Of a DNA stretch of 64,000 bases, positions 411 through 63,541 are shown piece after piece; positions within the stretch are counted from its first letter, which is position 1, and each line of letters begins with the position of its first letter. Source of the stretch: a virus. A program made the position numbers and the translations under genes. The notes below the pieces were generated by a model. That model had not been told where the DNA came from. It saw only the letters and a program-made list of their open reading frames with translations, and ran no database searches. Location: IMG/VR virus record IMGVR_UViG_3300025834_000005. One strand, given 5' to 3'.

Positions 411-487
411 GCAATGTACTGGTTTTAATTAAAAATGCAATGTACAGAAGAAACTAATCTTAATTAAAAACACATTGTGCGATTCTT

Positions 488-517
488 TGTAACCTTTTTA
501 TTTAATTTACGTATAAC
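488..517 (+). promoter_or_regulatory. phage-type promoter motif
   Basis: copy 2; upstream of 533..994. Confidence 0.6.
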
Positions 518-532
518 ATAGAAACAAATACC

Positions 533-994
533 ATGAGATCAATAGAATATCTTGTTCAATTATTTCCTGATAAAACATGTAGAGAGATTCTGGCTATTCA
601 AACAGCAGATAAGCTCGAAGACGACATGAAGTATGAAAAGGTTAACAAAAAGAAGTTGAAGTTCATCGAAGATCATAATACCAATGGTGGATATTATTGT
701 GGTCGGTTCGGCAGTGACCAACGTTATTTCTATCGAGTTTTCAATATGAGAATGGAAGGCTCTGATATCTATATGGACGTTGAAACTTTGGTAGTCTTTA
801 TGAATCAGGAAGGCGTTAAACATCAGGTAACAAAAACTGGCGATGTTAGCGTGGAAAGGCGTACCAAAGTATGGCAGAAGGAAGACACTTACTGTTTGGA
901 AAACAGGGAACGAGTAACAAAAAAAGAATGGGATGCTATTAATGATTATGTTAATAATCTGGCAAAGTTCTGGGATCATATCAAAAAAGTGTAA
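533..994 (+). CDS. hypothetical protein, 153 aa
   Basis: promoter motif 488..517 upstream; TAA stop lies inside next promoter motif (TGTAACC). Confidence 0.65.
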   Translation: MRSIEYLVQLFPDKTCREILAIQTADKLEDDMKYEKVNKKKLKFIEDHNTNGGYYCGRFGSDQRYFYRVFNMRMEGSDIYMDVETLVVFMNQEGVKHQVTKTGDVSVERRTKVWQKEDTYCLENRERVTKKEWDAINDYVNNLAKFWDHIKKV

Positions 995-1019
995 CCTTTT
1001 TGATTCATTTACGTATAAC
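990..1019 (+). promoter_or_regulatory. phage-type promoter motif
   Basis: copy 3; upstream of 1035..1244. Confidence 0.6.
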
Positions 1020-1034
1020 ATAGAAACAAAAGCC

Positions 1035-1244
1035 ATGAGAGAAATAACATTCGAAGTAACATTGAGGTTCAGTTCAAAGGTAACAGCTGACGAGGAAATT
1101 CTTGAAGTTCAGCAAAACATATTGGATGCGATTGTTAGACAAGCTGAAAGTGCAATTCTCGCACCATTGGATAGTGATGCATTCACAACAAATATTAAAG
1201 TGTTTGAACCGTTAACACAGGTTGCAGTGTCACACACTTTTTAA
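1035..1244 (+). CDS. hypothetical protein, 69 aa
   Basis: internal ATG of track ORF 933..1244; the first 34 residues of the track ORF are just a translation of promoter motif 990..1019. Confidence 0.6.
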   Translation: MREITFEVTLRFSSKVTADEEILEVQQNILDAIVRQAESAILAPLDSDAFTTNIKVFEPLTQVAVSHTF

Positions 1245-1307
1245 TTAAAAATATAGTCTTGAGTTTGTTTTAGTTTTAAGTTTGTTTATGTATTTGCCCC
1301 GAAAAGT

Positions 1308-2096: not shown

Positions 2097-2660
2097 ATGG
2101 GATGGACACAGTTTAGATTAAAAGAACCAGTTAAGAATTGGTTTAAGAATCGGTGGGAATCAACAGATGGTTACAAAGTATTGGATTCAGCATTGGTTCA
2201 GCGTACAACTTTGTATGCAGCTATACAGAAAATTGAAACAGGCGAAGTGTTTTGTGCCGTTTACTTAATCAGGTGGTCTAATGAGTATTTCAATTTCTGT
2301 TACAAAGATATGACTGAGTTTGCTGGGCCTTGTGAAGCAAAATGTCCTCAACGTATTTTCGATCTGTTAACTCCATTAAGTGACGACGAAGATAATAACT
2401 ATGCACGTGAATGGCGTAAAAGAGTTGAGTCGCTTTTAATTAAAAGGAAAGAACTCTCAGGTTGCGTTAAGATCATTAAACTTGAAAACCCTATCGGGTT
2501 TGGAAGAGGCTATCGTTTTCAATACTTCAAAAAGGTTGGAAGAGTGTTCTATGCAGGCACAATGGAAGAAACAGGCGTCTTTGACTCAACAACAAGAGTA
2601 TCAGGTTTTAATCCAACAGATTATAAATATGAATTGATTGACTGTATTGAATCAGTTTAA
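2097..2660 (+). CDS. hypothetical protein, 187 aa
   Basis: promoter motif 2045..2074 upstream; terminator hairpin 2665..2692 downstream. Confidence 0.7.
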   Translation: MGWTQFRLKEPVKNWFKNRWESTDGYKVLDSALVQRTTLYAAIQKIETGEVFCAVYLIRWSNEYFNFCYKDMTEFAGPCEAKCPQRIFDLLTPLSDDEDNNYAREWRKRVESLLIKRKELSGCVKIIKLENPIGFGRGYRFQYFKKVGRVFYAGTMEETGVFDSTTRVSGFNPTDYKYELIDCIESV

Positions 2661-2664
2661 ATAA

Positions 2665-2732: not shown

Positions 2733-3692
2733 ATGAAAATTCCACAAAGTAATCTACCAACTGTTCAGGGTTTTTATTTCGTAAGAACGTCAGAGTCAGC
2801 CATGTGGCAACTTCTTCTTGAGGTTATCGGTATTGCTCCGTTCATGGGCGTTGCAACTATTCACGCTTTATTTAAAGAAAGTGATACAACGATTCTTGAG
2901 AATCTTACAGATTTATATTGGAGCGAAGTGATTGAATTGAAAGCCATTCAGGACGACGTTCACGTAGGATTTAAGATCACAAAAGACACGAAAGACACTA
3001 TCATTTTTCATTTGGGCAACGATGAAACAAAGGTAAATGACATTGTTGCAGAAGCCGAAGACTTTTTCAAAGCAAAGATTATAGAACACTTAGACAATGT
3101 ACCTGATGATGATGTTGAGGTTGCACTCGAAAACGGATTCATTGATAATGAAGACCTTGGCATTGCCATTTGCCTTTCATGGTCACAGGTTTTAATTAAC
3201 AACCCATTGTACAGAGTTAGGTGTGGTGAAACAATTTGTACGGTTGGCGAACTACGTTCAGCAATGGCTGACTGTGATGATAATGATTCAATGATCTTAG
3301 CACCGTGCGATGAAGAGGGCGACGAAACAGATCACTATCCTTTTTATGTTGATATTTATGACGGCTTAAAGGACGACAAAGGCAATGAGTTTAAAGAGGT
3401 TCGTTTGTGTCAGCAGAATCATGAGGCTTGGGATGCAAAAAAATCTTACGATGCTATCTTAACACCCGTTGTTGATTTTCCACCGTTCCAAAAATGTAAA
3501 CAAGTTGTTGTACGACCCGACATTTTAAAACGTGAAGAAGGCGTTCCAGTTGGCGATAAATATTATTATGCTTCAGAGCCGTTACTTTCACGTTGGCTAC
3601 ATGAGGATGAACCCAATGAAACATTTCAAGTTTACTTTGCGGACAAATGGCGTGACGCTGAATCAATTGATTGGAATGACTATGTAAAATAA
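2733..3692 (+). CDS. hypothetical acidic protein, 319 aa
   Basis: promoter motif 2682..2711 upstream; hairpin 3711..3742 downstream. Confidence 0.7.
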   Translation: MKIPQSNLPTVQGFYFVRTSESAMWQLLLEVIGIAPFMGVATIHALFKESDTTILENLTDLYWSEVIELKAIQDDVHVGFKITKDTKDTIIFHLGNDETKVNDIVAEAEDFFKAKIIEHLDNVPDDDVEVALENGFIDNEDLGIAICLSWSQVLINNPLYRVRCGETICTVGELRSAMADCDDNDSMILAPCDEEGDETDHYPFYVDIYDGLKDDKGNEFKEVRLCQQNHEAWDAKKSYDAILTPVVDFPPFQKCKQVVVRPDILKREEGVPVGDKYYYASEPLLSRWLHEDEPNETFQVYFADKWRDAESIDWNDYVK

Positions 3693-3710
3693 CCCAATAC
3701 GATTTTAATT

Positions 3711-3742
3711 AAAAAGGTTGCAATTAATTTTGTAACCTTTTT
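3711..3742 (+). terminator. hairpin sharing its 3' arm with promoter motif 3731..3760
   Basis: AAAAAGGTTGCA-N8-TGTAACCTTTTT. Confidence 0.55.
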
Positions 3743-4039: not shown

Positions 4040-4057
4040 TCTTTTTAATTAAAAATC

Positions 4058-4730: not shown

Positions 4731-4938
4731 TTATAATACCCATCAATTTAAAAGCGATGGAAAATGTATTCAGACCTATAAAAAGGTTGTAAAGGAAATG
4801 GCGGTTTTAATTAAAAAGAGTTGGGACAATGAGGTTCATGTATTTCGCCAAAGACGTGGATGTTGGGGGGAATGGTTTGAGATATGGGGATTAGACGCAA
4901 ACGGCAAACCTAAAATAAATAAACAGGGTTGGCAATGA
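4711..4938 (+). CDS. hypothetical protein, 75 aa
   Basis: track ORF, 20-nt overlap with upstream gene. Confidence 0.5.
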   Translation: MNQPYVSYNTHQFKSDGKCIQTYKKVVKEMAVLIKKSWDNEVHVFRQRRGCWGEWFEIWGLDANGKPKINKQGWQ

Positions 4939-6714: not shown

Positions 6715-6731
6715 CTCTTAATTAAAAACAG

Positions 6732-7112
6732 ATGAAAGACAAATGCGAAGAAAGTGGAACATTTAAATATAACTGTACAGTATATGAGTTTAAAAGTGGC
6801 TCAATAGGTTCATACTTTACTGAACGATACTACGGTGGCTCGAATGAAATATTCGTTTCAGTCGTTGTTCCCGAAGAGATATACGTTTTAATTAAAAACA
6901 TGAATGCTGACATGTTGGATTGGAGTAGCAATGATAATGTTATCGCATTTCATAAATGGTTGAATACCATTAGCTTAAGCCAGGTTTATGATGATATGCT
7001 TATCGAGGGTAAGCTACTTGAATACTTAGGCGACATGGAATGGAAATTTAAAACAACAGAAGAACTCATTGAACACGTGACAAAAAAGATCATAGAGTTT
7101 AAAGCTTTGTAA
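6732..7112 (+). CDS. hypothetical protein, 126 aa
   Basis: TTAATTAAAAAC junction before ATG; stop in promoter motif 7108..7137. Confidence 0.6.
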   Translation: MKDKCEESGTFKYNCTVYEFKSGSIGSYFTERYYGGSNEIFVSVVVPEEIYVLIKNMNADMLDWSSNDNVIAFHKWLNTISLSQVYDDMLIEGKLLEYLGDMEWKFKTTEELIEHVTKKIIEFKAL

Positions 7113-7152: not shown

Positions 7153-7422
7153 ATGAAAACGAAACGATTCACAATAGTAGCATTCCATAATTCAGATATG
7201 GATAATCAACAGCACTTCTTTTCAACATCACATACCCAACAGCTTGAAGTTGATAAGTATAAATGGATTCCTGTTACATATGCGCTACCAATGCTTGTAA
7301 CGCCACGTATGGAATTGATTGATGGAATTGTAAGGAACAAAGCAGAGTGGACAGTTATCTTTGCAAAGGATTCAATTGAAGTTCCAAACCCTGATGAAAA
7401 TTTTAAAGTAACTGATTTTTAA
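7153..7422 (+). CDS. hypothetical protein, 89 aa
   Basis: promoter motif 7108..7137 upstream. Confidence 0.6.
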   Translation: MKTKRFTIVAFHNSDMDNQQHFFSTSHTQQLEVDKYKWIPVTYALPMLVTPRMELIDGIVRNKAEWTVIFAKDSIEVPNPDENFKVTDF

Positions 7423-7433
7423 TTAAAAACGCT

Positions 7434-8632: not shown

Positions 8633-8983
8633 ATGCAAAAGATTTTTTTCGTACCAGTATTATCCAAAGAAGAAATAATCATATTTAATATGACTGCTCG
8701 TGTTTATCGGGAATATGAAAATGCTGTCAGCGACTTTCCAAACAGAACCATTGCGGCTGTTGATATAACCCCAATGGGTGAAACATTCAGGGCTGAAATT
8801 ATGATCGTAGTTGATGATGACGATGATCGCACACCAACATTTTATGTTGATATCCCACCAACCAACGGCGACGAATGGACTAACATTGAATCATTCAAGT
8901 ATCGCCCTGATGCAATTGAATTTGCGAAAGAGAGATTTCATGCTGACGATAATGGCATGGTAAGTTTAGTTAGTCAATCTTAA
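8633..8983 (+). CDS. hypothetical protein, 116 aa
   Basis: promoter motif 8585..8614 upstream. Confidence 0.6.
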   Translation: MQKIFFVPVLSKEEIIIFNMTARVYREYENAVSDFPNRTIAAVDITPMGETFRAEIMIVVDDDDDRTPTFYVDIPPTNGDEWTNIESFKYRPDAIEFAKERFHADDNGMVSLVSQS

Positions 8984-8994
8984 TTAAAAACGCT

Positions 8995-9718: not shown

Positions 9719-10120
9719 ATGGAAAAGAAAGACAAAATTGGAATGCAAATAAACCCTTTTATGATGATGGGTGTAGGCGAACCACCGATAGCTCATTTAT
9801 GCTATAATCACGCTGATATAACGTCTGCATTAGCTATGGAACGTGCTCACATCCATGAGCCTCATTTGCCCATTATATTCATGGGTGAACCGCAAGGTGG
9901 TATGGTTTTAATTAAAAAGTTTAATGATCTGTTCTATCCAATATCTGTTCTGGGTTTTAATTTAGAATATAGTGACAGCATTAAGGTTTTAATTAAAAAT
10001 GGTTTTAACAAATGGGAAACATTTCACGCTGAATACCTTTTAATTAAGAATAAGAAGTCAAAGCAAACAAGATCAGTGCGATTAGCCATTGAAAAAACAT
10101 ACGAAAAGATTTCAAAATAG
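9719..10120 (+). CDS. hypothetical protein, 133 aa
   Basis: promoter motif 9684..9713 upstream; contains three in-frame TTAATTAA (LIK) motifs. Confidence 0.65.
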   Translation: MEKKDKIGMQINPFMMMGVGEPPIAHLCYNHADITSALAMERAHIHEPHLPIIFMGEPQGGMVLIKKFNDLFYPISVLGFNLEYSDSIKVLIKNGFNKWETFHAEYLLIKNKKSKQTRSVRLAIEKTYEKISK

Positions 10121-11205: not shown

Positions 11206-11397
11206 ATGAAAGACCTTAGACAATACGTTATATTAAAATCGTTATCTTATCCGTTAATCGCTACGGATATTCAGGAACAATTTCAACTATGCTTGGATGA
11301 AATTGAACAGGGTGAAAGTGCCTCAAATGAAGTGGCGATATGTTATTCAGCCATTGATGAACTTATCGAAGACTTTAATAAAACGGTTATTAATTAA
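11206..11397 (+). CDS. hypothetical protein, 63 aa
   Basis: track ORF; A-rich leader. Confidence 0.55.
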   Translation: MKDLRQYVILKSLSYPLIATDIQEQFQLCLDEIEQGESASNEVAICYSAIDELIEDFNKTVIN

Positions 11398-11403: not shown

Positions 11404-11622
11404 ATGTACAGATATAGGATCGTTTCCAATTATGGCTTCGGGGATATCACATGGCTTGAGCGATATCTAACACAGAAACAGGTTGTTAAGTACTTTGTGT
11501 CGCATGAAATGTACCCAAAGAAAACCAAATTCAGTGATATACCTACAACCAGTGATCATATTTATTATTGTGAAATTGATAACATAGGCGATACACTTGA
11601 AAACACATTCAGCGAATCTTAA
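11404..11622 (+). CDS. hypothetical protein, 72 aa
   Basis: TTAATTAAAAAG junction before ATG. Confidence 0.55.
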   Translation: MYRYRIVSNYGFGDITWLERYLTQKQVVKYFVSHEMYPKKTKFSDIPTTSDHIYYCEIDNIGDTLENTFSES

Positions 11623-11633
11623 TTAAAAACAAT

Positions 11634-12219: not shown

Positions 12220-12278
12220 TGTACTTTTAATTAAAAATGGTTTGTACATCTTAATTAAAAAGAGATTGTACAATCCAT

Positions 12279-12585: not shown

Positions 12586-12603
12586 CTTTTAATTAAAAAC
12601 CAT

Positions 12604-12921
12604 ATGGAAATTTCTTACAGATCAAAATCGAATGAATACGGCATTGGTATTCAGATCAACTACCAGCCAGAAGAGGTTGACACATTGTCCCTTTTAATTA
12701 ACGAGCTTGAAGCTAATAACTTCAAGAAACGTTTATCTGGAATCCCAGACAGAGTTAAACAGAAATCACGCAAGGTATTCTTTTATCGTACAGGTAGCAG
12801 ACCTTTTGGTATATTCACTGGCGACGAGGTTGTATTCTTTGTTAACGAGTCTGAAAAGATTCTTAAACGTTACGATAAGAACTTTAACCTTAAAACATTG
12901 TTACCATACGATAACGACTAA
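12604..12921 (+). CDS. hypothetical protein, 105 aa
   Basis: TTAATTAAAAAC junction before ATG. Confidence 0.6.
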   Translation: MEISYRSKSNEYGIGIQINYQPEEVDTLSLLINELEANNFKKRLSGIPDRVKQKSRKVFFYRTGSRPFGIFTGDEVVFFVNESEKILKRYDKNFNLKTLLPYDND

Positions 12922-12981: not shown

Positions 12982-13530
12982 ATGACAGCACCAAAAGTTG
13001 AATTGAAAAACATTAAATTCCATGAAGGCATGGAGGGTCAAGGCTTTAATGCAGACCTATGGATTAACGGCGTTAACTGCATGCATGTGAGGGACAGCGG
13101 CGACGGCGGAGAACTGGACAGCCGTGACAATATCTATAAGAATCCTAAAGCTGACATTGTCCGTGAGAATATCAAACAGCTGAATGTACATATTGCCAGC
13201 CTACCTGATTACGTCTACCCAGCGAGAGACGGACAAAGAGAATTGAGAATCAAAATTGATCTGGCTATCTTTGTCGAAGAGCTTTTAAATAAGATGGCTA
13301 AAGAAAAAGAAGCTAAAAAGATTGCTAAGCTTCAACTGGATAATATTCTCTGGGGACAGCCAAATGGTTCGAGCTATATGAAAATGAAGCTTGTTGCACC
13401 AATCAAAGATACACCTGCTGATATGCTTAGTAAGACGGTTGCCCACATCAGGGCTATATACTTCAAAACTGGTGACGTCTTTCTGAATACCAACTTCGCT
13501 GAATTCCAATCGCCATCTACTCTTAATTAA
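12982..13530 (+). CDS. hypothetical protein, 182 aa
   Basis: promoter motif 12926..12955 upstream. Confidence 0.65.
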   Translation: MTAPKVELKNIKFHEGMEGQGFNADLWINGVNCMHVRDSGDGGELDSRDNIYKNPKADIVRENIKQLNVHIASLPDYVYPARDGQRELRIKIDLAIFVEELLNKMAKEKEAKKIAKLQLDNILWGQPNGSSYMKMKLVAPIKDTPADMLSKTVAHIRAIYFKTGDVFLNTNFAEFQSPSTLN

Positions 13531-13537: not shown

Positions 13538-13789
13538 ATGACTCATTTTTACGATATCAAGGTTCTGAGAAAAATCTTTTATGATCTTGTAGCTAAAGGT
13601 AACTACACTACAGACATAGCAAAAAGCATTGGGTGCACACCGCCGACTCTCACCAAGGTATTGAATAACCAATCGATCTTAAGAGCAAGCTGCTGTGAGC
13701 TTTTAATTAAAAACTATAATGTGAATCCTGATTATCTCTACAGAGGTATCGAACCAATGTACATCGAAACAATTGAACCAGTAAAATAA
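13538..13789 (+). CDS. putative helix-turn-helix protein, 83 aa
   Basis: TTAATTAAAAAC junction; segment IAKSIGCTPPTLTKVLNNQS looks like an HTH (by eye only). Confidence 0.5.
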   Translation: MTHFYDIKVLRKIFYDLVAKGNYTTDIAKSIGCTPPTLTKVLNNQSILRASCCELLIKNYNVNPDYLYRGIEPMYIETIEPVK

Positions 13790-14098: not shown

Positions 14099-14130
14099 GA
14101 TTGAAAGGCACACCTCCTTTTAATTAAAAA

Positions 14131-14209: not shown

Positions 14210-14779
14210 TCAATTAACCCATACGAGCTTATCGATCTCTTCGTTGATGATCTTCTTAATATTGATTTGGTTTTCTAATAAATTAACACTACCTTTGTCG
14301 GCTCTGTATATGTTAAACACAATGTCCTCTGGCATATGCTTCTTAATTAAAAAGTATGCCTCAATGTCTTTACCCCTATCATCATATACATCAATAGCTT
14401 TTATGTTCCTCTCCCATCTAAGGAAATCATAAATCCTTTCACCCTTGTCAACATTATGATCATTCATAAAGATACCATCAACCTCAATGCCATTCTTATT
14501 TAAAACCTTTATAAGATCAGGTCTCAATGCTTCAATCCTACTGGTTAATATAATAACCATTGTATTAGGATTAGCACCTTCTTTGGCTAATATGTTAGCT
14601 ATATCATTGTACGGTTTAATATCAAACACATCAATGTCCAAGCTGGCTGGTGAACTCCACCAACCCTTATCAGGAAAATCTTTGCCAGTCCTTTCCTTAT
14701 ATAATACCATACCTTCCTCTGGTGATGGGGAATTCATAAGTGTTCCGTCAAAATCAAATGCTACCAATTTCGTTATCAT
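14210..14779 (-). CDS. HAD-superfamily phosphatase / nucleotidase-like protein
   Basis: MITKLVAFDFDGTL (DxDGT motif I), ILTSR (motif II), VYDDRGKD (motif III-like); start moved to the ATG just before the DxD motif. Confidence 0.7.
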   Translation of the reverse strand: MITKLVAFDFDGTLMNSPSPEEGMVLYKERTGKDFPDKGWWSSPASLDIDVFDIKPYNDIANILAKEGANPNTMVIILTSRIEALRPDLIKVLNKNGIEVDGIFMNDHNVDKGERIYDFLRWERNIKAIDVYDDRGKDIEAYFLIKKHMPEDIVFNIYRADKGSVNLLENQINIKKIINEEIDKLVWVN

Positions 14780-14962
14780 CAATGTACAGTTTAATCTAAA
14801 TACTATTTTAATTAAAAACCATTGTACGACCATCTGTACCATTGTACGAGAACCTTATCGACACCACAAAAGTAGTTATTATAAATGAATCCACCAAATA
14901 AAATGTGGGAATATTGTAAACTTTTATCGGAATAATGTAACTATTAGGCTTGTACATGATAT

Positions 14963-16920: not shown

Positions 16921-17498
16921 TATGCAAAAATAATCATAGGGGTCAAACAGATCACTATGATTATTATGTTATTCTTATACAGCGTTTTACCTAAAACAGC
17001 CGTTAGCCAAACAGGTCATTAGTAGCCCAAATATCTTCTCCGTTCTGGTTGCAAAATCATAGATATTCATTAATGACCTGTTATTTAAGTTCTTAACATA
17101 TTGAAAAACTATGATAATCGAATTCTCTATAGGGGTCTGAGAGGCTATTTATCATATTACAATGTCCATAATTATAATTATTTATAAAAATGGTTTCTGA
17201 AAAAAAGCACATGGGTCGTCGCTCTTCGTGTCGGTACACAAAATGCTTAGTTTTTAATCAAAAACCCTACCCAATTAGACATTTAGACAAGCGTCTAATT
17301 AAAACCCCTATTATTCAGCGTCTAACTCCTTGATACTCAGCAAAACCTTTTTCAAATAAAAATGATCAGATTCTAACCATTTTAATTAAAATAGGGTAGT
17401 TATGGTACAAATAAAATAGCTTTTTTTATTTGATCATTTTCTGATCAAAATTACCCATATAAATGACGTAAAAATGATCAAAAATAGGTTATGTTTTT
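16921..17498. other. repeat-rich intergenic region (candidate replication origin or control region)
   Basis: no ORF; ATAGGGGTC x2 (16936, 17129); 12-bp inverted repeat 17010-17021/17071-17082; four TGATCA palindromes flanked by A/T tracts (17363, 17431, 17442, 17475); GCGTCTAA x2. Confidence 0.35.
16929..16965 (+). terminator. hairpin after 15979..16920
   Basis: AATAATCATAG / CTATGATTATT 11-bp stem. Confidence 0.5.
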
Positions 17499-20692: not shown

Positions 20693-20717
20693 GTTTTAAT
20701 TAAAAAGTAAATATATT

Positions 20718-20987: not shown

Positions 20988-21416
20988 ATGACAAAGTATT
21001 ATGACGTTAATACGAAGACGTTTTCAAAGTTTAATGAAGCCCAGAGGAATTTATTAAATGCTATTTATATTGACCCAACTGTTTACGAAGGTACGAAAGA
21101 TGCCGTTGTTTATCAATATCATGCTGTTCAGTTACATTTAAATGATTTTCTTTCAGAAGATGATGTTTTTCTTGTGTTGAGCGAAGTACGAAAACTAAAT
21201 GATTTTAAGGTTCTTTTGTATAATCCTGTTGCTGAAATTATAAGACTTGAAACTACATTGATTGTGGATAGAATTGAGTCATATGTTAATTTTGACAATT
21301 CACATAATGGTGGTGGCAACACTAAAATATTCACTGAACTTGCTATAAGCGAAGTATCTAACGAGATCAAAAATAGGATTCGCAAACTCATTCTGGACTT
21401 TTGCGAGGTTTTTTAA
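20988..21416 (+). CDS. hypothetical protein, 142 aa
   Basis: host-type promoter TTG-N20-TATCTTTG at 20940..20970. Confidence 0.6.
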   Translation: MTKYYDVNTKTFSKFNEAQRNLLNAIYIDPTVYEGTKDAVVYQYHAVQLHLNDFLSEDDVFLVLSEVRKLNDFKVLLYNPVAEIIRLETTLIVDRIESYVNFDNSHNGGGNTKIFTELAISEVSNEIKNRIRKLILDFCEVF

Positions 21417-21437
21417 TTAAAACCCATATAATATCTG

Positions 21438-28172: not shown

Positions 28173-28190
28173 GATATTCGTTTTTAATTA

Positions 28191-28233
28191 AAAAGGTTAC
28201 AAGAAAGATTTATGGTCTTTCTTGTAACCTTTT
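28191..28233 (+). terminator. 18-bp hairpin sharing its 3' arm with promoter motif 28223..28252
   Basis: AAAAGGTTACAAGAAAGA / TCTTTCTTGTAACCTTTT, perfect. Confidence 0.65.
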
Positions 28234-29140: not shown

Positions 29141-29539
29141 ATGAAAGAAGTCTTAATTAATTTTGAAACAGCTAATTTAGCCAAAGAAAAAGGATTCACA
29201 TTAGATCGTTATATAGACTCTGCATGTTATTTGCTGAATAAAGAATTATTCCCTTCGGTCTTTAGCCTTCAAAATTATGATTGCGGTGTAGGGAGAGAAC
29301 TTACCAAATTTATCTATGCTCCAACTCAATCATTACTCCAAAAATGGCTTAGAGAGAAGTACGACACGCATGTTCAAATTGTGCTAACAGAGATTCAGGG
29401 TGAAGATATATATCCATACTATTTTTATTTAATGGGTATCACCAATAAAATACTTATCAGCAATCTTTCTAAGCAATTTCAAACATATGAAGAAGCTTTA
29501 GAGGCTGGCTTACAGGAAGCATTAAAACTTATACCATGA
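29141..29539 (+). CDS. paralog family A member
   Basis: MKEVLINFETANLAKEKGF, TQSLLQKWLREKYDTHVQI, YEEALEAGLQEALKLI. Confidence 0.65.
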   Translation: MKEVLINFETANLAKEKGFTLDRYIDSACYLLNKELFPSVFSLQNYDCGVGRELTKFIYAPTQSLLQKWLREKYDTHVQIVLTEIQGEDIYPYYFYLMGITNKILISNLSKQFQTYEEALEAGLQEALKLIP

Positions 29540-30359: not shown

Positions 30360-30368
30360 TTAAAAGCT

Positions 30369-32325: not shown

Positions 32326-32340
32326 TTTTAATTAAAAACT

Positions 32341-43193: not shown

Positions 43194-43448
43194 ATGTATA
43201 CACAAATTACTGAAAACGGAGATTTAATTAAGATGGATTACAATGGTATGATCTTTACAACCTACAATATAAAGGGAATGATCATACCTGTAAAATGTAA
43301 TCATTGTGGCAAAGCTTACGACCTCGCAACAGCACGTATTAATCATAGATTTGCTGACTGCGACCAATTTACAACACCATGTTGTGGCTATCAGTTTGCA
43401 GATACACGAGAATATAAATCATTTAAAGATTTTGAACGTTTAAATTAA
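43194..43448 (+). CDS. Cys-rich protein (CNHCGK...CDQFTTPCCG), 84 aa
   Basis: promoter motif 43149..43178 upstream. Confidence 0.6.
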   Translation: MYTQITENGDLIKMDYNGMIFTTYNIKGMIIPVKCNHCGKAYDLATARINHRFADCDQFTTPCCGYQFADTREYKSFKDFERLN

Positions 43449-44379: not shown

Positions 44380-44600
44380 TGAACGCAAAAGATTTAGAAA
44401 GCTTGACAAATGAGGAAATGAAAGACATCTTAAATAGAAGTGAGAAACCATTTCCTACAATCGTCCACGACTATGTTTATGGTAACGATAAGTTTATACA
44501 AAAAACATTTAATGCAGACTCTTACAGTAGACTAAACAGGGTTATTAGAGTTGTACAAGCTATGGTAATCGTAAGATTTCAACAAGGACTTATTAATTAA
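44379..44600 (+). CDS. hypothetical protein, 73 aa
   Basis: TGATG overlap. Confidence 0.55.
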   Translation: MNAKDLESLTNEEMKDILNRSEKPFPTIVHDYVYGNDKFIQKTFNADSYSRLNRVIRVVQAMVIVRFQQGLIN

Positions 44601-46451: not shown

Positions 46452-46721
46452 ATGAGAACGAACGGCGAAATTTTAAATGATGTAATTGACGCAGAAAGCA
46501 AGAGTATTCCAAAGGCTATGAGGTCTGACTTTCGGAGCAAAAGAGAATGCCCTGATCGGACGCTTGCGTTAAAAGCTATGATGGAACTTCGTGGAAAGAT
46601 TAATTTAATCGCAAATGTTTATTGCGGAAAGTTCGACCCATCAACATTGGCTAAGCTAAGTCGTGAAGAGATCATTGAGCATATTGACGAATTCCATGAT
46701 TGGCTCGGAAACTTTAATTAA
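46452..46721 (+). CDS. hypothetical protein, 89 aa
   Basis: promoter motif 46399..46428. Confidence 0.6.
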   Translation: MRTNGEILNDVIDAESKSIPKAMRSDFRSKRECPDRTLALKAMMELRGKINLIANVYCGKFDPSTLAKLSREEIIEHIDEFHDWLGNFN

Positions 46722-47464: not shown

Positions 47465-47763
47465 TGAGCTTTTTTAATTTATTTCCTTGGGATAACGGAG
47501 TTGATCCATACTTCGTTAATGATGAAGGTTTTGAGTGGTATATCGATAAGGATATTACCGATTGGGCAACTAAAGATACTGACACTGGTATTAAAGGACT
47601 TAAAGGCGTCATGTGCTTTTTCGTAAAAAAAGGCGACGATATCAACAGGGTTTTAATTAACGATCAACAGCAGATACTTGCAGATGATCGCAGCCTTGAA
47701 CAGATATGCGTAAAGATCGACTTAATGAAGATCGTAAAAAATTATGAATTACATGAAAAATAA
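47464..47763 (+). CDS. hypothetical protein, 99 aa
   Basis: TAATG overlap. Confidence 0.55.
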   Translation: MSFFNLFPWDNGVDPYFVNDEGFEWYIDKDITDWATKDTDTGIKGLKGVMCFFVKKGDDINRVLINDQQQILADDRSLEQICVKIDLMKIVKNYELHEK

Positions 47764-50384: not shown

Positions 50385-50404
50385 TAACTTTTAATTAAAA
50401 ATAC

Positions 50405-52807: not shown

Positions 52808-53068
52808 ATGTCACATTGGAATCATAGAATTTTAGCCGTAAGTAATGAAGTATATCCTGATGATATATATTTAGAAATGTATGAAGTCTATTATGACGAT
52901 AATGGCATTCCTAATGGGTATACAGCTAATCCGATCACTATTGGTAGCGAAGATATTAAAGGCATTCGTTGGTCTTTAAATCGAATGAAAGATGCCTTAA
53001 AAGAACCTATACTATGGAAAGGTAAAAGATTTCCAGAAGAATATAAACCCTTAATTAATAATCTATAA
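52808..53068 (+). CDS. hypothetical protein, 86 aa
   Basis: track ORF. Confidence 0.55.
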   Translation: MSHWNHRILAVSNEVYPDDIYLEMYEVYYDDNGIPNGYTANPITIGSEDIKGIRWSLNRMKDALKEPILWKGKRFPEEYKPLINNL

Positions 53069-53413: not shown

Positions 53414-53722
53414 ATGAATTACAGAAACATTCAATCAGGTCACATTATCAGCGAAAGCTACTGGCGCAAATTGCCTTTATGCAAACAACGCACATTCACA
53501 TCAACCTTCGCTGAACCAACACATACCATTTCCGAAAGCGGTGACGACGGAAGTTCTGATGGTATGGGTATATTCACAACACTGCTTATCGCTGATGCTT
53601 TAAGTGATTCTGGCAGCATGTTCGGAAGTTCCGACATGGGTTCAAGCGATTCGGGTTCGAGTTCATCTTTTGATTTCGGTGGTGGAGATTTCGGTGGCGG
53701 TGGTGCTGGTGGTGACTTTTAA
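53414..53722 (+). CDS. protein with a TM segment and Gly/Ser/Asp-rich tail, 102 aa
   Basis: GIFTTLLIADAL followed by GSSDMGSSDSGSSSSFDFGGGDFGGGGAGGDF; promoter motif 53366..53395. Confidence 0.55.
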   Translation: MNYRNIQSGHIISESYWRKLPLCKQRTFTSTFAEPTHTISESGDDGSSDGMGIFTTLLIADALSDSGSMFGSSDMGSSDSGSSSSFDFGGGDFGGGGAGGDF

Positions 53723-53728
53723 TTAAAA

Positions 53729-58565: not shown

Positions 58566-60842
58566 ATGTTGTTAGCAAAAAGCACTGGAAATATAACATT
58601 GTTAAGTCATTCCACGTTGGTTTCGCATATATGCGAGAAATTAATAAAAAAAGCCTTAAATGTAAAAGATGATGATCTGATTAAGTCAATTAAAATCGGC
58701 GGATTATTACATGACATAGCAAAAGCTTTGTCTATTTTTCAGAAAATGCTGAAAAAACAAAGGGATGAAGATAGTGCGAAAAATAAATTCAGGCATAATG
58801 AGATAGGTTGGGCATTTTTATACAGTTACTTAAATGTTAACGACAGTATACTGTCGTTGGTACTGGATATGATATACTGGCATCATGGGATATCAAATGA
58901 AATGGGTAAATACACATCAGATGAAATTCTCGATAGTATAGCAGATAAGGACGCTGAAATATTAATAATGAAAAATGTTTTAGTGGAATTACTTGGTGCT
59001 GAATATTTATTATCTGCACCACGAGAAGATATATATGGTAAAAAAACTCCCATATATTACACCCTTGACAATTTGAATGAATTTACAGAAAAATCAATAT
59101 TATGTCGCACGTGCTTAATTTCAGCTGATAGACTTGCATCGAAATTAGAAGAGTCTAAATACGCATATGACATTGATAATGAGATTAATTTAATCATTGC
59201 AAAGGAAACGCCATTCAAAATAACAACCTGTCCGAGTGAATATAATAAGAGCAGATTTGACGCTCAGTTGGAGATAGCAAAAAAATGCTCTAACACAACC
59301 ATTGTCAAAGGCCCTGGCGGTTTCGGTAAAACCTGCGTAGGCTTAATCTGGGCATCTTTAAGCAATAAAAAGGTTATATGGGCATGCCCCAGAAATGGCG
59401 TTGCTGAATCAGCATACATATCATTGAAGAATGAAATAGAGTCATTTGGACTGAATATAAAAATGGAATTATTTCTAACTGGCGAGATAAAAGAAGCTAA
59501 TTATGATATCCAAGAACCCTTTACATCTGATATCATAGTAACGAATATTGACAATTTTCTCAGTCCAACCGTTAGTATGCGTTCAGCTGACCGACTATTT
59601 TTAATTAATAATGCTGATGTTATATTTGACGAATATCATGAATTAACAACAGAAGCCGCATTATTCGCATGTTCCATAAATATCATGCGTCTACGCAACA
59701 TGTTTACAGATTCAAGAACATTATTTTTATCTGCAACACCGATAGCTGTGGAATTTTTATGGAATACTATATCCAGACCCACATTAGTATTACCAAATGC
59801 TGCAACACATTACAAAGCTGCTCATGATCGTAAAGCATTAATTCGAATTACTGATAACTTACCTAAGTTAGAGGAATCAAATACATTATATTTGACAAAC
59901 GCTATTTCAAATGCACAAGATTATAAGGACATGTTTGACTGTAATAGTTTAATACACAGCGGATTCACAGAAGAAGATAAGCATACGAAAATACTTGACC
60001 TATATACTGTATATGGTAAGTCAAGTATTAGAAATATAAAAAAGCCCAATGTTATGGGTACTCGCATCATACAAGCCAGTTTTGATATATCATTTCAAAA
60101 TGTTTCTGAATCAGTTTTATCGCCAGAGGCAACGATGCAAGCATTACCGAGAGGCGAAAGATGGGGCGATTATATCAAACAAGCAATATTTACGACATAT
60201 AACGTTCGTGGTTATGAATCTAAAGCCGAAAATAAAGTGCGTGACATACTATATGAGAAAGACCTTACAGATATATGGTTTGAATATTTGAGACAGTTTA
60301 ATGGTACTCAAATGTCATTTGACGAACTATACTGCGTATATAATGAATACAGTTCAATTCATAAAAAGGAAATTAAGGATTATATACTAAGGAAATATCG
60401 CACAAGCAGAACAATTCTCAGTACGATCTACCCAAAACATTTCAGAAATATTTCAAAAACAGCGATAAAAACAGCTGGAAGTAATAAATTAAGATCAGTC
60501 GGTAACGAAATATTCGTAACAATGCGATATTATAATTCAGATAAATATACCAATCCTATAAGCACAAGAATATATAAATCTATCGATATCGACTTTGATG
60601 AAACCTCAAAAACAAGGACTCAATTAATTCATGCGATGCAAGCAATATCAAAAAGCGGTGACGAAAGGTTTGAATATGAGGAACTTCTAAATAACAAGGA
60701 AAACATGACCTTAGACGCAATCCGAAAATACGGTTTAAAATCAAATACACCATATATAAGGTTTGACCAAGTATATCATCCTGACTACGGCGGTATAAAA
60801 CCAGCACGATTAGAAAATATTTTAAAAAGCTTAAAAAAGTAG
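58566..60842 (+). CDS. cas3: Cas3 HD nuclease / SF2 helicase
   Basis: HD motifs LLSHS, LLHDIAK, RHNEIGW, YWHHG, SADRLAS; helicase motifs GPGGFGKT (I), DEYH (II), SAT (III), IQASFD (V); promoter motif 58519..58548. Confidence 0.85.
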   Translation: MLLAKSTGNITLLSHSTLVSHICEKLIKKALNVKDDDLIKSIKIGGLLHDIAKALSIFQKMLKKQRDEDSAKNKFRHNEIGWAFLYSYLNVNDSILSLVLDMIYWHHGISNEMGKYTSDEILDSIADKDAEILIMKNVLVELLGAEYLLSAPREDIYGKKTPIYYTLDNLNEFTEKSILCRTCLISADRLASKLEESKYAYDIDNEINLIIAKETPFKITTCPSEYNKSRFDAQLEIAKKCSNTTIVKGPGGFGKTCVGLIWASLSNKKVIWACPRNGVAESAYISLKNEIESFGLNIKMELFLTGEIKEANYDIQEPFTSDIIVTNIDNFLSPTVSMRSADRLFLINNADVIFDEYHELTTEAALFACSINIMRLRNMFTDSRTLFLSATPIAVEFLWNTISRPTLVLPNAATHYKAAHDRKALIRITDNLPKLEESNTLYLTNAISNAQDYKDMFDCNSLIHSGFTEEDKHTKILDLYTVYGKSSIRNIKKPNVMGTRIIQASFDISFQNVSESVLSPEATMQALPRGERWGDYIKQAIFTTYNVRGYESKAENKVRDILYEKDLTDIWFEYLRQFNGTQMSFDELYCVYNEYSSIHKKEIKDYILRKYRTSRTILSTIYPKHFRNISKTAIKTAGSNKLRSVGNEIFVTMRYYNSDKYTNPISTRIYKSIDIDFDETSKTRTQLIHAMQAISKSGDERFEYEELLNNKENMTLDAIRKYGLKSNTPYIRFDQVYHPDYGGIKPARLENILKSLKK

Positions 60843-60872
60843 TTGTATATATAAAAATAAGTTTTACCTTTG
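60843..60872 (+). promoter_or_regulatory. host-type promoter in front of cas7-cas5-cas6
   Basis: TTG-N19-TACCTTTG, 37 nt before ATG 60910. Confidence 0.5.
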
Positions 60873-60909
60873 TCGCATAATAATAAATCAAATTTTAATA
60901 ATTTTAAAA

Positions 60910-61980
60910 ATGACAGTAAAAAACATTTTATTTAAAGTCGATCTAATCGGCAATGGTATCGTAAACATGGACTCGAATGAGCAGAAATGGGTTTTTAATG
61001 ATACCGACTCACACCTGAAATCCTTTTATAAAAACACTTCATATGCGAAGAAAAATTTCTACAAAGATGAAAACGGTAAATTGATTTACAAGATCAAGAT
61101 TTCATCTGATTGTCTTAAACACGACATGTATAAGACAGACGTGATCGCACAATCTCCAAAGATCGCTATTGAGGACACAGTGCTTTATGCTTTTATTGCG
61201 TCTCCCATGTCAATTGCCAGAGGCTACCTGTTCGCAAACAAAAAGGAAACGTTAAAGAGACGTGGTGCTCTATGCATTTGTGACGCTGAACAAACCTGTA
61301 ACGCTGTATCGACTATGGAATTCTTTTCCAAATCAGGCGAAAAAACCACAAACGATGGCGACACGGATAAAGCAGATACAACTATCTACAAAAAAGAAAC
61401 TGTTGGGGATATTAAGTATACTACAATCGGAGATATCGACCTATCAGCTTTGCAGTTCATCAGCACCGATCAGGTTTTCGATAGGTTCGCTTTTAATCCT
61501 GATAAATTTTCGATGTATAAATCATTCTTAAGCATGAGAATGAAAAACTTCAACTCTGAATTAGGTTACTACCAACTGAACGGTTCAGCTATTGATATTC
61601 CTGAGTACGGAATTAAGCTTTCAAATGAAAACGTTCTTGATCTTGTTAAAGACACCCTGAAAAAGCTGTTGGCTATTAACATAAAAAGAAAAGGCTCGTT
61701 CGCTAAAGTATCTTCTTTGAAAATTAAACTGGTTGAAAATCCGATTGAAGAATTTTTAACAGGTGACGATAACTGGATTGATTTAAAAAGCTTCGAAGAT
61801 ATCGATAAACTCGATTTTGTTGCTGACGACTTCTACGGCTATGTTGATCTTGCCGAAGCATTGAAACGCAGAGAAGCTATCGAAGAAGCCTTAAGAGCTG
61901 AAAAAGCTAAGGATAAAGCTGAAAAGCTTGATAAAGATTCTAAGAAAGCAGCATCAAAAAAAGCTAAAGATGCCGAGTGA
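60910..61980 (+). CDS. cas7: Cas7-like backbone subunit with Lys/Glu-rich C-terminal tail
   Basis: position in the operon; GNGIVNMDSNE and ISSDCLKHDMYK resemble the Cas7 (Csa2/DevR-type) N-terminal motifs; tail EEALRAEKAKDKAEKLDKDSKKAASKKAKDAE. Confidence 0.55.
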   Translation: MTVKNILFKVDLIGNGIVNMDSNEQKWVFNDTDSHLKSFYKNTSYAKKNFYKDENGKLIYKIKISSDCLKHDMYKTDVIAQSPKIAIEDTVLYAFIASPMSIARGYLFANKKETLKRRGALCICDAEQTCNAVSTMEFFSKSGEKTTNDGDTDKADTTIYKKETVGDIKYTTIGDIDLSALQFISTDQVFDRFAFNPDKFSMYKSFLSMRMKNFNSELGYYQLNGSAIDIPEYGIKLSNENVLDLVKDTLKKLLAINIKRKGSFAKVSSLKIKLVENPIEEFLTGDDNWIDLKSFEDIDKLDFVADDFYGYVDLAEALKRREAIEEALRAEKAKDKAEKLDKDSKKAASKKAKDAE

Positions 61981-62803
61981 GATTAAATGCTTAACTTTAA
62001 AGTTCCGAAACGCTAAACTGTTTCGGAACGATAAAAAATGCCCTGATTATGTATCAGATATCAACGGCATTAGAAAAAGAACCGATGAGCCTCAGTATGT
62101 TGAGCCTATAACTGCTTATCAGGTAGCCAACGTATTACGAACATTATTCGGCGAAAGACCTGTTCCATCATTAAGGAAAGTTTTATTCACTGGTGATAAA
62201 TATTATCATGATAAGGCAAACGAATCATTAATACGTATTGATGGCTATAAACGATTTAATAAAAATAAACAAGAATTTCAGTATGTAACTGAATTAATGT
62301 CAACAAAAAAAATCGTAAGCAATAGCTATAATTCGACGCCAGTTATAACATGGAATATTGTAAAAAGATATGTGGGTGATGAAAACATGGAATGGTTTAT
62401 CGCCGAGCTATCAAGACTTATGATCAATCCTTTGGATAAACCATTTGAAGAGGTTCGTGCTGTATTACTAAACAGCGATTACAATATTCTTGCTACTGGA
62501 CTTAAAGCCAGAATGCTTACAGGTTTAGTTGAGTATATAAAAAATGATAAGATGGCTTATCAGATGACAGCTAAAACAGAAACAGCCTTGATCTATAATA
62601 ATGGTATTGAGAATATTGTTGTTTTAAGCGGAGAGATATTAGTTCCTGTTAGCGATGAAGACCTTGAAAAACTCTCAAAATCAAAGGGTTGTTCAACAAT
62701 TCTCGATGGCGGCTTAGTTTGGATTGACTCGATCAAATCCTATAACTTTGTTTCTGATGATGGCTTTACCAAAGTATGCGACATTTCAACTGAAAAATAT
62801 TAA
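61970..62803 (+). CDS. cas5: Cas5-like subunit (277 aa from ATG 61970; track ORF starts at 61928)
   Basis: position between the cas7-like gene and cas6; N-terminus LTLKFRNAKLFRN...PITAYQVANVLRTLFGE resembles the Cas5 N-terminal strand-helix pattern; 11-nt overlap with the cas7-like gene. Confidence 0.45.
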   Translation: MPSEIKCLTLKFRNAKLFRNDKKCPDYVSDINGIRKRTDEPQYVEPITAYQVANVLRTLFGERPVPSLRKVLFTGDKYYHDKANESLIRIDGYKRFNKNKQEFQYVTELMSTKKIVSNSYNSTPVITWNIVKRYVGDENMEWFIAELSRLMINPLDKPFEEVRAVLLNSDYNILATGLKARMLTGLVEYIKNDKMAYQMTAKTETALIYNNGIENIVVLSGEILVPVSDEDLEKLSKSKGCSTILDGGLVWIDSIKSYNFVSDDGFTKVCDISTEKY

Positions 62804-62806
62804 ACA

Positions 62807-63541
62807 ATGAGATTAAAAGTAGAATTCAATTCGACAACAGAAAGCGTACCCAGCAATCTAAAGCATTTAAATAGCTTTATTCATAGGATTTTGGGCGAAA
62901 ATAACATATACCATAACAAAAGCGGAGACTACAGCATTTCGCATCTATGTGGCGGTAAACTAAGCAAAGATAGATTAACTGTTTCCTTTCCCAATGGTAG
63001 CCCATTTATTATCATAACCTCTGAGGATATGACATTTTTAAATAAGATTATCGTGGGGTTAATGGATGAAAAAAATAAGGATTATGGTTTTGGCGTGACA
63101 TTTAAAAACATGACCTTTATTAATGAGGAATTGTATAATGGATGGAATCACTTCTTTGTGCTATCGCCAATTTTAATTAAAGGACGTGAGGAAAATGACC
63201 CAAGATACATCAATATCCTATCTAAAGATGAATCTGGTAGACATACGGTTATTAATGAGAATTATAAAGACAGACTGCAAAAACAGATCATTCATAAATT
63301 CTCAACAATCGACCCTACCTTAGACTTCTCAGACTTTGAACTGGTTATCAGCGACAAGCTTAAACGTGTGTATAATATCATGGATAAAAATGTTATTAAT
63401 TCAGCCTCTGTGTTTCAATTCAGCGTCAAAACAAATAAAAAGGTTGCTACCATGCTCTACAATATCGGCGTAGGTCAATCAACTAATTCAGGCTTTGGCA
63501 CGATCTATAAAACCGAAAATTATGATCTTTTCAAATTTTAG
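62807..63541 (+). CDS. cas6: Cas6-like crRNA endoribonuclease
   Basis: MRLKVEF... start, C-terminal Gly-rich loop GVGQSTNSGFGTIYK, located immediately upstream of the array. Confidence 0.65.
   Translation: MRLKVEFNSTTESVPSNLKHLNSFIHRILGENNIYHNKSGDYSISHLCGGKLSKDRLTVSFPNGSPFIIITSEDMTFLNKIIVGLMDEKNKDYGFGVTFKNMTFINEELYNGWNHFFVLSPILIKGREENDPRYINILSKDESGRHTVINENYKDRLQKQIIHKFSTIDPTLDFSDFELVISDKLKRVYNIMDKNVINSASVFQFSVKTNKKVATMLYNIGVGQSTNSGFGTIYKTENYDLFKF

Follow-up and report, generated by a model that had tools for sequence, protein, structure and literature searches.

An A/T-only palindromic word at gene junctions of an uncultured jumbo phage: a candidate stop-and-restart element of its early region

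What is the function of a short A/T-only palindrome that recurs over and over between, and sometimes inside, the genes of a phage? The question is raised by a stretch of 64,000 nt (the window) of the uncultured jumbo phage IMGVR_UViG_3300025834_000005, 66% A+T, in which nearly all genes (simple longest-open-reading-frame calls) lie on the + strand; here a first-pass annotation had counted by hand about 48 sites of the octamer TTAATTAA, where fewer than 10 would be expected by chance. The answer which we favour, with a probability of about 0.42, is that its longer form TTTTAATTAAAAA may be a directional cistron-boundary element, which would end one gene and load ribosomes for the next in cassettes of early, non-structural genes.

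Both figures of the annotation proved close to the mark: the octamer occurs exactly 50 times, against 8.6 +/- 3.1 (maximum 17) in dinucleotide shuffles and 9.0 in an order-3 Markov model, the very background under which it had been proposed that the enrichment might disappear. The 12-mer palindrome TTTTAATTAAAA is found in 25 copies for 0.12 expected, and the 13-mer TTTTAATTAAAAA in 21 exact + strand copies for 0.05 expected, rising to 81 matches (2.7 +/- 1.9 expected) when up to one mismatch is allowed; chance or base composition as the source of the excess is ruled out by the shuffle, Markov and mismatch counts alike. In the alignment of the 50 sites, T occupies position -2 in 43 and position -1 in 34, and A occupies +1, +2 and +3 in 40, 43 and 39, respectively, while position -3 has no preference (T in 11/50), T is avoided at -4 and A at +4. 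The word thus has a direction: exact 13-mers on the - strand number five, four of which are symmetric T5/A5 sites, and TTAATTAAAAA is present in 31 copies in the window, its reverse complement in six. The real unit is therefore a directional 13-mer, that is, a perfect 12-bp palindrome with one additional A, and the earlier estimate that about half of the sites carry the long form is roughly right (21/50). Density peaks in the first 15 kb (26 sites), falls to zero between 21.4 and 28.2 kb, as had been noted, and is low in the cas genes, which hold the only two sites of the CRISPR-Cas block (59601 and 63173), again as described. A non-palindromic variant, TTTAAATTAAAAA, which breaks the palindrome and retains both TAA in two frames and the A-run, is indeed used at 24.1, 24.5 and 24.8 kb, and also at 1763, 20567 and 43439. 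No relevant paper on TTAATTAA in phage promoters was found, nor any description of the word.

The window is an early, non-structural region, containing small genes without assigned function, ligases for RNA and for DNA, and an array-bearing CRISPR-Cas block of type I. Its strongest motif is a different one, TTGTAACCTTTT-N10-TTTACGTATAACATAGAAA (P1), present in about 53 + strand copies ahead of genes between 49 and 58560 (e.g. 488-530 and 990-1032), which we take to be an early promoter of the extracytoplasmic-function (ECF) sigma type; the late promoter box of this genome is presumed to be GTATTTAT. The 50-odd P1 spacers of the window do not contain the word. P1 halves adjoin only about 4 of the 50 sites, for which reason the possibility that the junction copies are relics of P1 was rejected.

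The position of the word with respect to genes is the observation on which the favoured reading chiefly depends. At 20 distinct junctions, the word ends 2-16 nt ahead of the ATG of a gene, most often 5-7 nt (11/20); these comprise the 16 pre-start sites listed in the annotation, all of them correct, and four more, preceding 19330, 34376, 37875 and 53071. Start-adjacent copies are 20 of some 48 distinct sites, and the genes that follow them are unrelated to each other. Among the 26 promoter-less junctions with a gap of 5-30 nt, 16 carry the exact word and four more TTTAAATTAAAAA; overlapping junctions, or those with a 0-4 nt gap, offer no space for it. The upstream gene finds its TAA stop within the word at 11 of the 20 junctions, and at six further ones its stop ends 2-5 nt before the word, so that the claim that these sites also supply the upstream stop is true of the former set and not of the rest. 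The word is oriented with the genes, in the window and in its relatives: an ATG lies within 16 nt downstream in the gene orientation at 26 sites and in the opposite orientation at four, the corresponding figures being 14 and 4 in one relative (G005) and 11 and 3 in another (G010).

The sequence context of these starts fits that of a translation initiation region in Bacteroidota. Ahead of motif-led genes, A accounts for fractions of 0.85, 0.75, 0.85 and 0.70 at positions -5, -6, -7 and -12, and of 0.45 at -3; the final 10 nt, AAACGCTATG, are identical between the junctions and the leaders of the P1 promoter; and the minimum free energy of the start region is -5.0 kcal/mol behind the word and -5.1 in P1 leaders, against -10.1 in random windows within genes. 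In Flavobacterium johnsoniae, A at -3, -6, -12 and -13 promotes initiation (Baez et al. 2019, PMC6847099). We infer from this arrangement that ribosomes may use the word as follows. On an early polycistronic mRNA, its 5' half (U-UAA-U-UAA) would stop two of the three frames and thus terminate the abutting upstream gene; its 3' half would provide the next AUG with an unstructured A-run (at about -5 to -9) and with AA (at about -12/-13); and this context, corresponding to Shine-Dalgarno-less ribosome loading in Bacteroidota, would allow the next gene to be initiated or reinitiated without a promoter of its own. The parts on which such a mechanism would rely are TTTTAATT and the A-run; since TTTAAATTAAAAA serves the same junction position, the palindrome itself is not needed there. 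Of the roles originally put forward, a translational-coupling or RNA signal is hence the best supported for the 20 junction copies (by position, orientation and A at -5 to -7 and -12), the other copies remaining uncovered; the objection, raised at the same time, that A-rich leaders do not explain a conserved palindrome is a fair one, and is answered in part only.

Relatives were sought among IMG/VR and metagenome contigs through pattern and protein searches. The sequence itself occurs in four DNA runs, all from glacier metagenomes, and megablast of 12 kb against deposited phages gave no match. At least five related jumbo-phage genomes show the same enrichment in the homologous early region: G002 has 32 of its 35 sites in 18-53 kb, G009 has 27 of 31 12-mers in its first 33 kb (32 of its 37 sites being intergenic), and G010 has 22 12-mers in its first 46 kb; the metagenome loci L135, L136 and L138 are enriched too. 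The motif-rich regions are homologous to 0-15 kb of the window and all carry a GP88-family gene 57-66% identical to that at 10304-11116, while phages whose GP88 is at most 55% identical show no enrichment; a further relative, with GP88 83% identical on a 265-kb contig, is closer than the genomes compared. Among the latter the closest is G003/G004 (ligase 79% identical, nucleotide identity 70-93% in patches, P1 in common), with only 9 sites in about 115 kb; two intergenic copies of the window (20696 and 34352) are retained in G003.

These distances and relatives also bear on the proposal that TTAATTAA is the -10-like box of a second (middle or late) class of promoter, analogous to TATAAATA of T4. 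The word is, like the T4 late box, an A/T-only 8-mer; many genes have it upstream; some copies are embedded in the preceding gene, where T4 middle and late promoters can also be located; and the flank that follows it in G009, AAATTGTAT, is similar to the P1 promoter on its -10 side (AAATCGTATAA). At 12 of the 20 junctions, however, the word is separated from the ATG by 2-7 nt, so that transcription beginning 6-8 nt downstream would hit the start codon; upstream there is neither a terminator nor space for one; the genes concerned are small and early-type, not virion genes; for in-gene copies the next start is 85-1300 nt away, and P1 promoters intervene; the copy at 34352 is inside a leader initiated by P1; and an orthologous junction in G003 is a stop/start overlap, ATGA, so that no promoter is needed there. 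The promoter option is consequently unsupported and, in our estimate, very improbable; in favour of a packaging role, likewise suggested at first, nothing was found.

The boundary element, as described, covers the 20 junction copies and five variant junctions; a number of observations weigh against it. It leaves unexplained some 28 of the 50 copies, which are not start-adjacent and nevertheless have the same exact unit (four T, five A), as well as the promoter-spacer copies in relatives, the restriction by region and lineage, and the T-run, which imposes a terminal Phe codon in 7 of the 9 upstream genes that stop in the first TAA. The restriction is marked: in the complete, 328-kb genome G005, 30 of 42 TTAATTAAAAA copies fall in a small-gene region of about 32 kb. 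Most motif-rich relatives have an early promoter of the form TGTAACC-ttt-TTAATTAA-aaat-CGTATAAT, in which the word is the spacer and lies ahead of the transcription start. Within genes, in-frame sites number 20, against 7.0 +/- 2.1 under synonymous-codon shuffling, and are followed by an in-frame ATG within 20 nt in 4 of 20 cases, which is near chance. The word is absent from the G003 orthologue in all five comparable in-gene cases, and at 33743 all five codons are changed toward the word relative to G003. At the 8983/8995 junction G003 has the ATGA overlap already mentioned, and unrelated A-rich linkers stand at the other junctions compared; since other linkers are used at orthologous junctions, the word is not required for translation as such.

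Copies away from starts are of two kinds. Ten stand between genes, more than 16 nt from any gene start; in most cases a stop is no further than about 13 nt away and a P1 promoter follows after 26-120 nt. Among these ten are two tandem pairs, in each of which the second copy stands exactly 28 nt ahead of a -35 box. About 18 are inside genes, 16 in frame in + strand genes and two in a minus-strand HAD-like open reading frame (ORF; 14210-14842). The in-frame Leu-Ile-Lys sites listed in the first-pass annotation are real, their frame being forced because the other two frames read TAA; the TTA ATT codons are used by 20 of 31 Leu-Ile-Lys/Asn tripeptides (20% expected), and the excess is mainly in 0-15 kb (11 octamers for 2.8 expected, six 13-mers for 0.6). 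Leu-Ile-Lys as a protein motif was rejected, given the forced frame, the biased codon choice and the different sequences of the orthologues, and internal starts were ruled out by the chance-level frequency of a following ATG. Taken together, the features left unexplained suggest a trans-acting reader; as the non-start copies are not covered, the same word is expected to be read also by something else, and both readings may hold.

Such a reader could act on DNA. The dyad TTTTAATTAAAA, extending to about 22 bp in relatives, would then be an operator- or stoperator-like site for a phage-encoded, probably dimeric protein, which would occlude the promoter between -35 and -10 in relatives and form a roadblock at boundaries and in genes, shutting off or tuning the early block, the junction A-run only doubling as a translation leader. 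The perfect palindromic core, so far above expectation, would be accounted for, as would the fixed place of the word in the P1 spacer of relatives (about 10 of 19 copies in L136, 10/28 in G002, 7/30 in G010, 5/43 in G005 and none in G009); the P1 spacer of the window differs, and only two degenerate minus-strand promoters of the relatives' type are present there (3705 and 28184). In the relatives, other copies precede ATGs in gene orientation, minus-strand genes included, or lie at gene ends. Also consistent with an operator are the tandem copies 28 nt upstream of the -35 box at two loci, the in-gene excess arising through substitutions, the + orientation retained by the two copies in the minus-strand gene, and an enrichment which is regional, lineage-specific and missing in G003. 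With sites oriented by the local coding strand and promoter copies dropped, a descriptive comparison of flank positions 4-9 found the outer flanks nearer to their own mirror image than slid versions in G010 (0.38 vs 0.53-0.62), G002 (0.33 vs 0.48-0.68) and the window (0.43 vs 0.57-0.59), such symmetry being weak or absent in G009 and G005, which counts against the operator. Left and right flanks (positions 3-9) covary within sites no more than permutations do in six genomes (p 0.18-0.97); an RNA hairpin or cruciform was therefore rejected, a result that suits a DNA dyad.

Against an operator stand the asymmetry of the unit in the window (A at +3 in 39/50, T at -3 in 11/50) and its strong co-orientation with genes, the 50-odd P1 promoters of the window, which lack it, the non-palindromic TTTAAATTAAAAA at the same junction position, kept in G003, and the poor specificity that an A/T-only 12-mer would offer as a target. 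No candidate regulator was seen among the larger proteins of 0-15 kb; the GP88-family protein (10304-11116) was considered as the reader and dropped, being enzyme-like and present also, at up to 55% identity, in motif-poor phages. The protein-binding option of the first-pass annotation is thus strengthened by the spacer position in relatives and the partly dyad-symmetric flanks, and we consider an operator the main rival of the boundary element, if on balance unlikely. A broader scheme, more speculative still and also unlikely, is that one regulator's site controls the whole early block in a clade of lytic jumbo phages of Bacteroidota, serving as a spacer operator in the relatives and as stoperator-like roadblocks here, where it would have been co-opted as a stop/start linker; a single 13-nt word would then act in transcription control and in both the termination and the initiation of translation.

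The reader could also act on RNA: UUUUAAUUAAAAA in early transcripts might be bound by a translational repressor or cut by an endoribonuclease, and thereby switch off or process these messages. In T4, A/U-rich initiation regions are bound by RegA, and RegB cleaves early ribosome-binding sites at GGAG. The word follows the direction of transcription and adjoins the starts of early, non-structural genes; its regional, lineage-specific distribution is that expected of a co-evolving phage factor; and the copies at gene ends, in genes and in spacers transcribed by read-through could all be cleavage sites. A single-stranded RNA site, however, needs no palindrome, the two copies in 14210-14842 point the wrong way for the mRNA of that gene, and no RegA-family (PF01818) gene scored above cut-off in the records of four relatives, all of them fragments. 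An RNA target appears improbable to us.

A further explanation dispenses with a reader: the word might be the end-piece of small gene cassettes, copied and homogenised by recombination within a hyperplastic region, with little function beyond that of a tolerated stop/start linker. Identical 18-mers are found at unrelated junctions (7419 = 8980; 12589 = 13523); at 20696 homology with G003 stops right after the word, and at 19315 it sets in within the word; 14 extra nt with the word are present in the window where G003 has its ATGA overlap; the whole region is mosaic, with few genes common to the relatives; promoter spacers are homogenised within a genome and differ between genomes; and L136 has a hybrid copy made of -35 box, word and ATG. 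Thirteen nt are, however, short for homologous exchange, the in-gene copies arose by several substitutions at unchanged length, and the larger indel between window and G003 (9.2-11.9 kb) has P1 promoters, and not the word, at its ends; moreover, the word has been kept in phages that are only 57-66% identical in the proteins they share, which argues for selection. We therefore hold a passive linker to be distinctly improbable.

The word is, in summary, a real, clade-specific cis element of early-gene cassettes, for which the stop-and-restart function remains, on sequence grounds, our tentative preference. Words repeated at gene junctions are known from a small number of well-studied phage groups (the start-associated sequences, SAS, and the stoperators of mycobacteriophages, below), and a clear counterpart is found here in giant T4-related phages of Bacteroidota. 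If the element is a portable stop-and-restart linker, it would offer a defined, testable sequence for ribosome reloading between genes without Shine-Dalgarno pairing, and could be useful for operon building in Bacteroidota; if a regulator reads it, it would point to global early-gene control in uncultured jumbo phages, with promoter spacers and cistron boundaries linked through one site. In either case, it is a good annotation marker of gene starts and ends in these genomes. The coordinates of the copies are collected in Table 1.

Table 1. Copies of the word and of its variant in the window; the position given is that of the core or, where indicated, of the variant or group of copies.
Feature	Position	Strand	Remarks
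Junction copy	4045..4052	+	5 nt ahead of ATG 4058
Junction copy	6718..6725	+	6 nt ahead of ATG 6732; upstream stop ends 3 nt earlier
Junction copy	7419..7426	+	7 nt ahead of ATG 7434; first TAA is stop of 7153-7422; same 18-mer as 8980
Junction copy	8980..8987	+	7 nt ahead of ATG 8995; first TAA is stop of 8633-8983; ATGA overlap in G003
Junction copy	11390..11397	+	6 nt ahead of ATG 11404; second TAA is upstream stop
Junction copy	11619..11626	+	7 nt ahead of ATG 11634; first TAA is stop
Junction copy	12589..12596	+	7 nt ahead of ATG 12604
Junction copy	13523..13530	+	7 nt ahead of ATG 13538; second TAA is stop
Two overlapping copies TTAATTAATTAA	19308..19319	+	10 nt ahead of ATG 19330; first TAA is stop of 19024-19311; stops in all three frames
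Junction copy	20696..20703	+	14 nt ahead of ATG 20718; kept in G003, homology stopping just past it
Junction copy	30356..30363	+	5 nt ahead of ATG 30369; first TAA is stop
Junction copy	32328..32335	+	5 nt ahead of ATG 32341; G003 spacer is an unrelated 15 nt
Two overlapping copies	34352..34363	+	in leader of P1 transcript, 12 nt ahead of ATG 34376; kept in G003
Copy in final codons of 37705-37878	37855..37862	+	12 nt ahead of ligase ATG 37875; absent in G003
Junction copy	39664..39671	+	10 nt ahead of ATG 39682; first TAA is stop
Junction copy	44593..44600	+	5 nt ahead of ATG 44606; second TAA is stop
Junction copy	46714..46721	+	11 nt ahead of ATG 46733; second TAA is stop
Junction copy	50391..50398	+	6 nt ahead of ATG 50405
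Copy at end of 52808-53068	53051..53058	+	12 nt ahead of ATG 53071
Junction copy	53719..53726	+	2 nt ahead of ATG 53729; first TAA is stop
Variant TTTAAATTAAAAA	1763..1775	+	4 nt ahead of ATG 1780
Variant TTTAAATTAAAAA	24101..24113	+	before ATG 24116, tandem paralogues; kept in G003
Variant TTTAAATTAAAAA	24519..24531	+	before ATG 24534
Variant TTTAAATTAAAAA	24832..24844	+	at end of 24534-24836
Variant TTTAAATTAAAAA	43439..43451	+	before ATG 43456
Two copies (425, 460), interleaved with CAATGTAC boxes	425..467	+	second 28 nt before -35 box of P1 at 488; 10-codon mini-ORF from copy 1 into copy 2
Gene-end copy	1241..1248	+	stop of 933-1244; 67 nt before P1
Gene-end copy	3705..3712	.	26 nt before P1; minus-strand spacer of degenerate relative-type promoter TGCAACC-ttt-TTAATTAA-aat-CGTATTG
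Copies at 12227 and 12251 (24 nt apart), alternating with TTGTAC boxes	12227..12258	+	second 28 nt before P1 at 12279; 5-codon mini-ORF between
Intergenic copy	14120..14127	+	22 nt past stop; no gene start within 16 nt
Intergenic copy	17382..17389	+	6/7 match to -35 box just upstream
Gene-end copy	21413..21420	+	stop of 20988-21416; 45 nt before P1
Gene-end copy	28184..28191	.	39 nt before P1; minus-strand spacer of relative-type promoter TGTAACC-ttt-TTAATTAA-aaa-CGAATAT
In-frame copy (Leu-Ile-Lys)	2436..2443	+	in 2097-2660
In-frame copy	3192..3199	+	in 2733-3692; CATTGTAC 5 nt later
In-frame full 13-mer	4807..4814	+	in 4711-4938
In-frame full 13-mer	6888..6895	+	in 6732-7112; in-frame ATG 4 nt later
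Three in-frame copies (9908, 9989, 10040)	9908..10047	+	in 9719-10120; first two are full 13-mers
In-frame copy	12694..12701	+	in 12604-12921
In-frame full 13-mer	13703..13710	+	in 13538-13789; G003 orthologue has GGA TTA TTC AAA GCT
Copy in minus-strand HAD-like ORF 14210-14842	14343..14350	+	A-run directed along + strand
Full 13-mer in minus-strand HAD-like ORF	14808..14815	+	two CATTGTAC boxes downstream
In-frame core only, no A-run	29153..29160	+	in 29141-29539
In-frame full 13-mer	33743..33750	+	in 33302-33988; G003 orthologue has TTG CTC GAA AAG AAT
In-frame copy	34580..34587	+	in 34376-34933; in-frame ATG 4 nt later; absent in G003 orthologue
In-frame core only	43224..43231	+	in 43194-43448
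In-frame core only	47653..47660	+	in 47464-47763; absent in G003 orthologue
In-frame core only	59601..59608	+	cas3 gene
In-frame core only	63173..63180	+	cas6 gene

Several other features of the region were recorded alongside the word. The TAA in the -35 box of P1, TGTAACC, is the stop of many upstream genes (e.g. 533-994, 1780-2049, 6732-7112, 7434-7679 and 8995-9162), so that a regulatory word of P1 doubles as a coding signal. Inverted -35 boxes, AAAAGGTTACA ... TGTAACCTTTT, form terminator-like hairpins at 2668-2692, 5954-5978, 28194-28233, 34942-34976 and 41653-41677, in which the -35 element of the promoter itself makes up the 3' arm; the left arm is, at 3705 and 28184, part of a degenerate minus-strand promoter, and these therefore resemble pairs of promoters placed back to back. 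Three P1 promoters are immediately preceded by (A)GTTTGTTT repeats (AAGTTTGTTTGTTT...; 1254-1287, ~5930-5960 and ~9640-9680), and two of these three promoters lie inside a GCCCC...GGGGC hairpin. A third motif, CA[AT]TGTAC, occurs in 18 copies for about two expected, all on the + strand and all in 0-15 kb (412-14847); it stands 4-6 nt after TTAATTAA in seven cases (425, 460, 3192, 11390, 12227, 12251 and 14808), two copies stand behind TTTTTTG (412 and 11170), and the G005 region homologous to this one is enriched in it as well, the motif there often forming an extension of the -10 box of P1 (CAATGTACGTATAA). Two mini-ORFs, MQCTEETNLN (435-467) and MVCTS (12237-12254), each begin 2 nt past a TTAATTAA copy and take their stop from the TAA of the copy that follows, in both cases just upstream of a P1 promoter.

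Among the genes, 14210-14842 is a lone minus-strand gene in a + block, HAD-like with a borderline match to the HAD domain of RNA-repair proteins, whose ATG comes from the reverse complement of a CATTGTAC box. At 23695-24844, three tandem paralogous genes are joined by the linker GATTTAAATTAAAAAC(G/A)ATGGAAG, G003 having one copy and the linker. The GP88-family protein (PF17338, phrog_1617) is highly conserved, having some 1,800 relatives, many at 60% identity or more, with Cys53, Cys60 and Cys64 invariant; it gives weak TIM-barrel-like fold matches, and one homologue is fused to an endonuclease VII domain. Its gene is the only one common to all motif-rich regions and is absent at the syntenic site of G003. 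The type I CRISPR-Cas block (58566-63993) consists of a Cas3 HD-helicase (58566-60842), two unassigned genes, Cas6 (62807-63541) and an array of 36-nt repeats from 63647 to the end of the window; G003/G004 (L018, L064-L066) contain 35-40 copies of a different repeat (…CGTACTATAGTGGAATGTAAAG), probably their own CRISPR array of another repeat type.

Comparable words have been described in other phages. The SAS of Cluster K mycobacteriophages is a 13-nt word found in one orientation 3-7 bp before many starts, for which a role in translation initiation has been proposed, its function being unproven (Pope et al. 2011, PMC3203893). The likeness is extensive: both are 13-nt units standing a few nt before the starts of unrelated genes in a non-structural part of the genome, both are group-specific, and both sometimes contain the upstream stop. 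SAS is, in contrast, G-rich (GGGATAGGAGCCC) with a Shine-Dalgarno core, the word of the window being A/T-only, as befits hosts in which Shine-Dalgarno sequences are ignored; SAS copies are almost all found at starts, whereas over half of the present ones are not; copies in promoter spacers have not been reported for SAS; and hosts and phage types are unrelated. The stoperators of Cluster A, asymmetric sites that the L5 repressor binds as a monomer (Mavrich and Hatfull 2019, PMC6550527; McGinnis et al. 2022, PMC9283540), likewise occur as tens of 13-bp copies, mostly in one orientation relative to transcription. One stoperator is at the early promoter and the rest are in transcribed regions, and their consensus varies among related phages; unlike the palindromic core in the window, they are asymmetric, they bind the immunity repressor of temperate phages, whereas the present phage is a T4-like jumbo phage with no sign of lysogeny in the window, and the promoter-located copies are in its relatives and not in the phage itself.

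The promoter-early stem-loop (PeSL) cassettes of T4-type phages, reportedly the subject of work by Arbiol et al. in 2010, are similar in having small novel ORFs set between repeated regulatory words, likewise in an early region that is hyperplastic; mosaic breakpoints fall at the PeSL repeats and, in the window, at the copies at 20696 and 19315, the larger indel against G003 being bounded by P1. A PeSL is, however, a promoter with a stem-loop, a role filled here by P1 with its inverted -35 boxes, whereas the TTAATTAA word is a promoter-less stop/start linker. The initiation regions of Bacteroidota (PMC6847099) resemble the junctions in being A-rich and unstructured, with A at -6 and -12/-13; they differ in being a loose compositional preference and not an exact 13-nt word, in offering no counterpart of T-run and palindrome, and in that A at -3 reaches only 0.45 here. 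In T4-type late promoters the box lies at about -13 to -6 relative to the transcription starts of late (virion) genes, whereas the gap is here 2-7 nt at 12 of 20 junctions and the genes are early-type; nor does the word behave as a HIP1-like iterated palindrome, its enrichment being regional, its form directional and its copies in relatives mostly intergenic (32/37 in G009). By analogy, then, the nearest counterpart in layout would be SAS, and the nearest for a site read by a regulator would be the stoperators.

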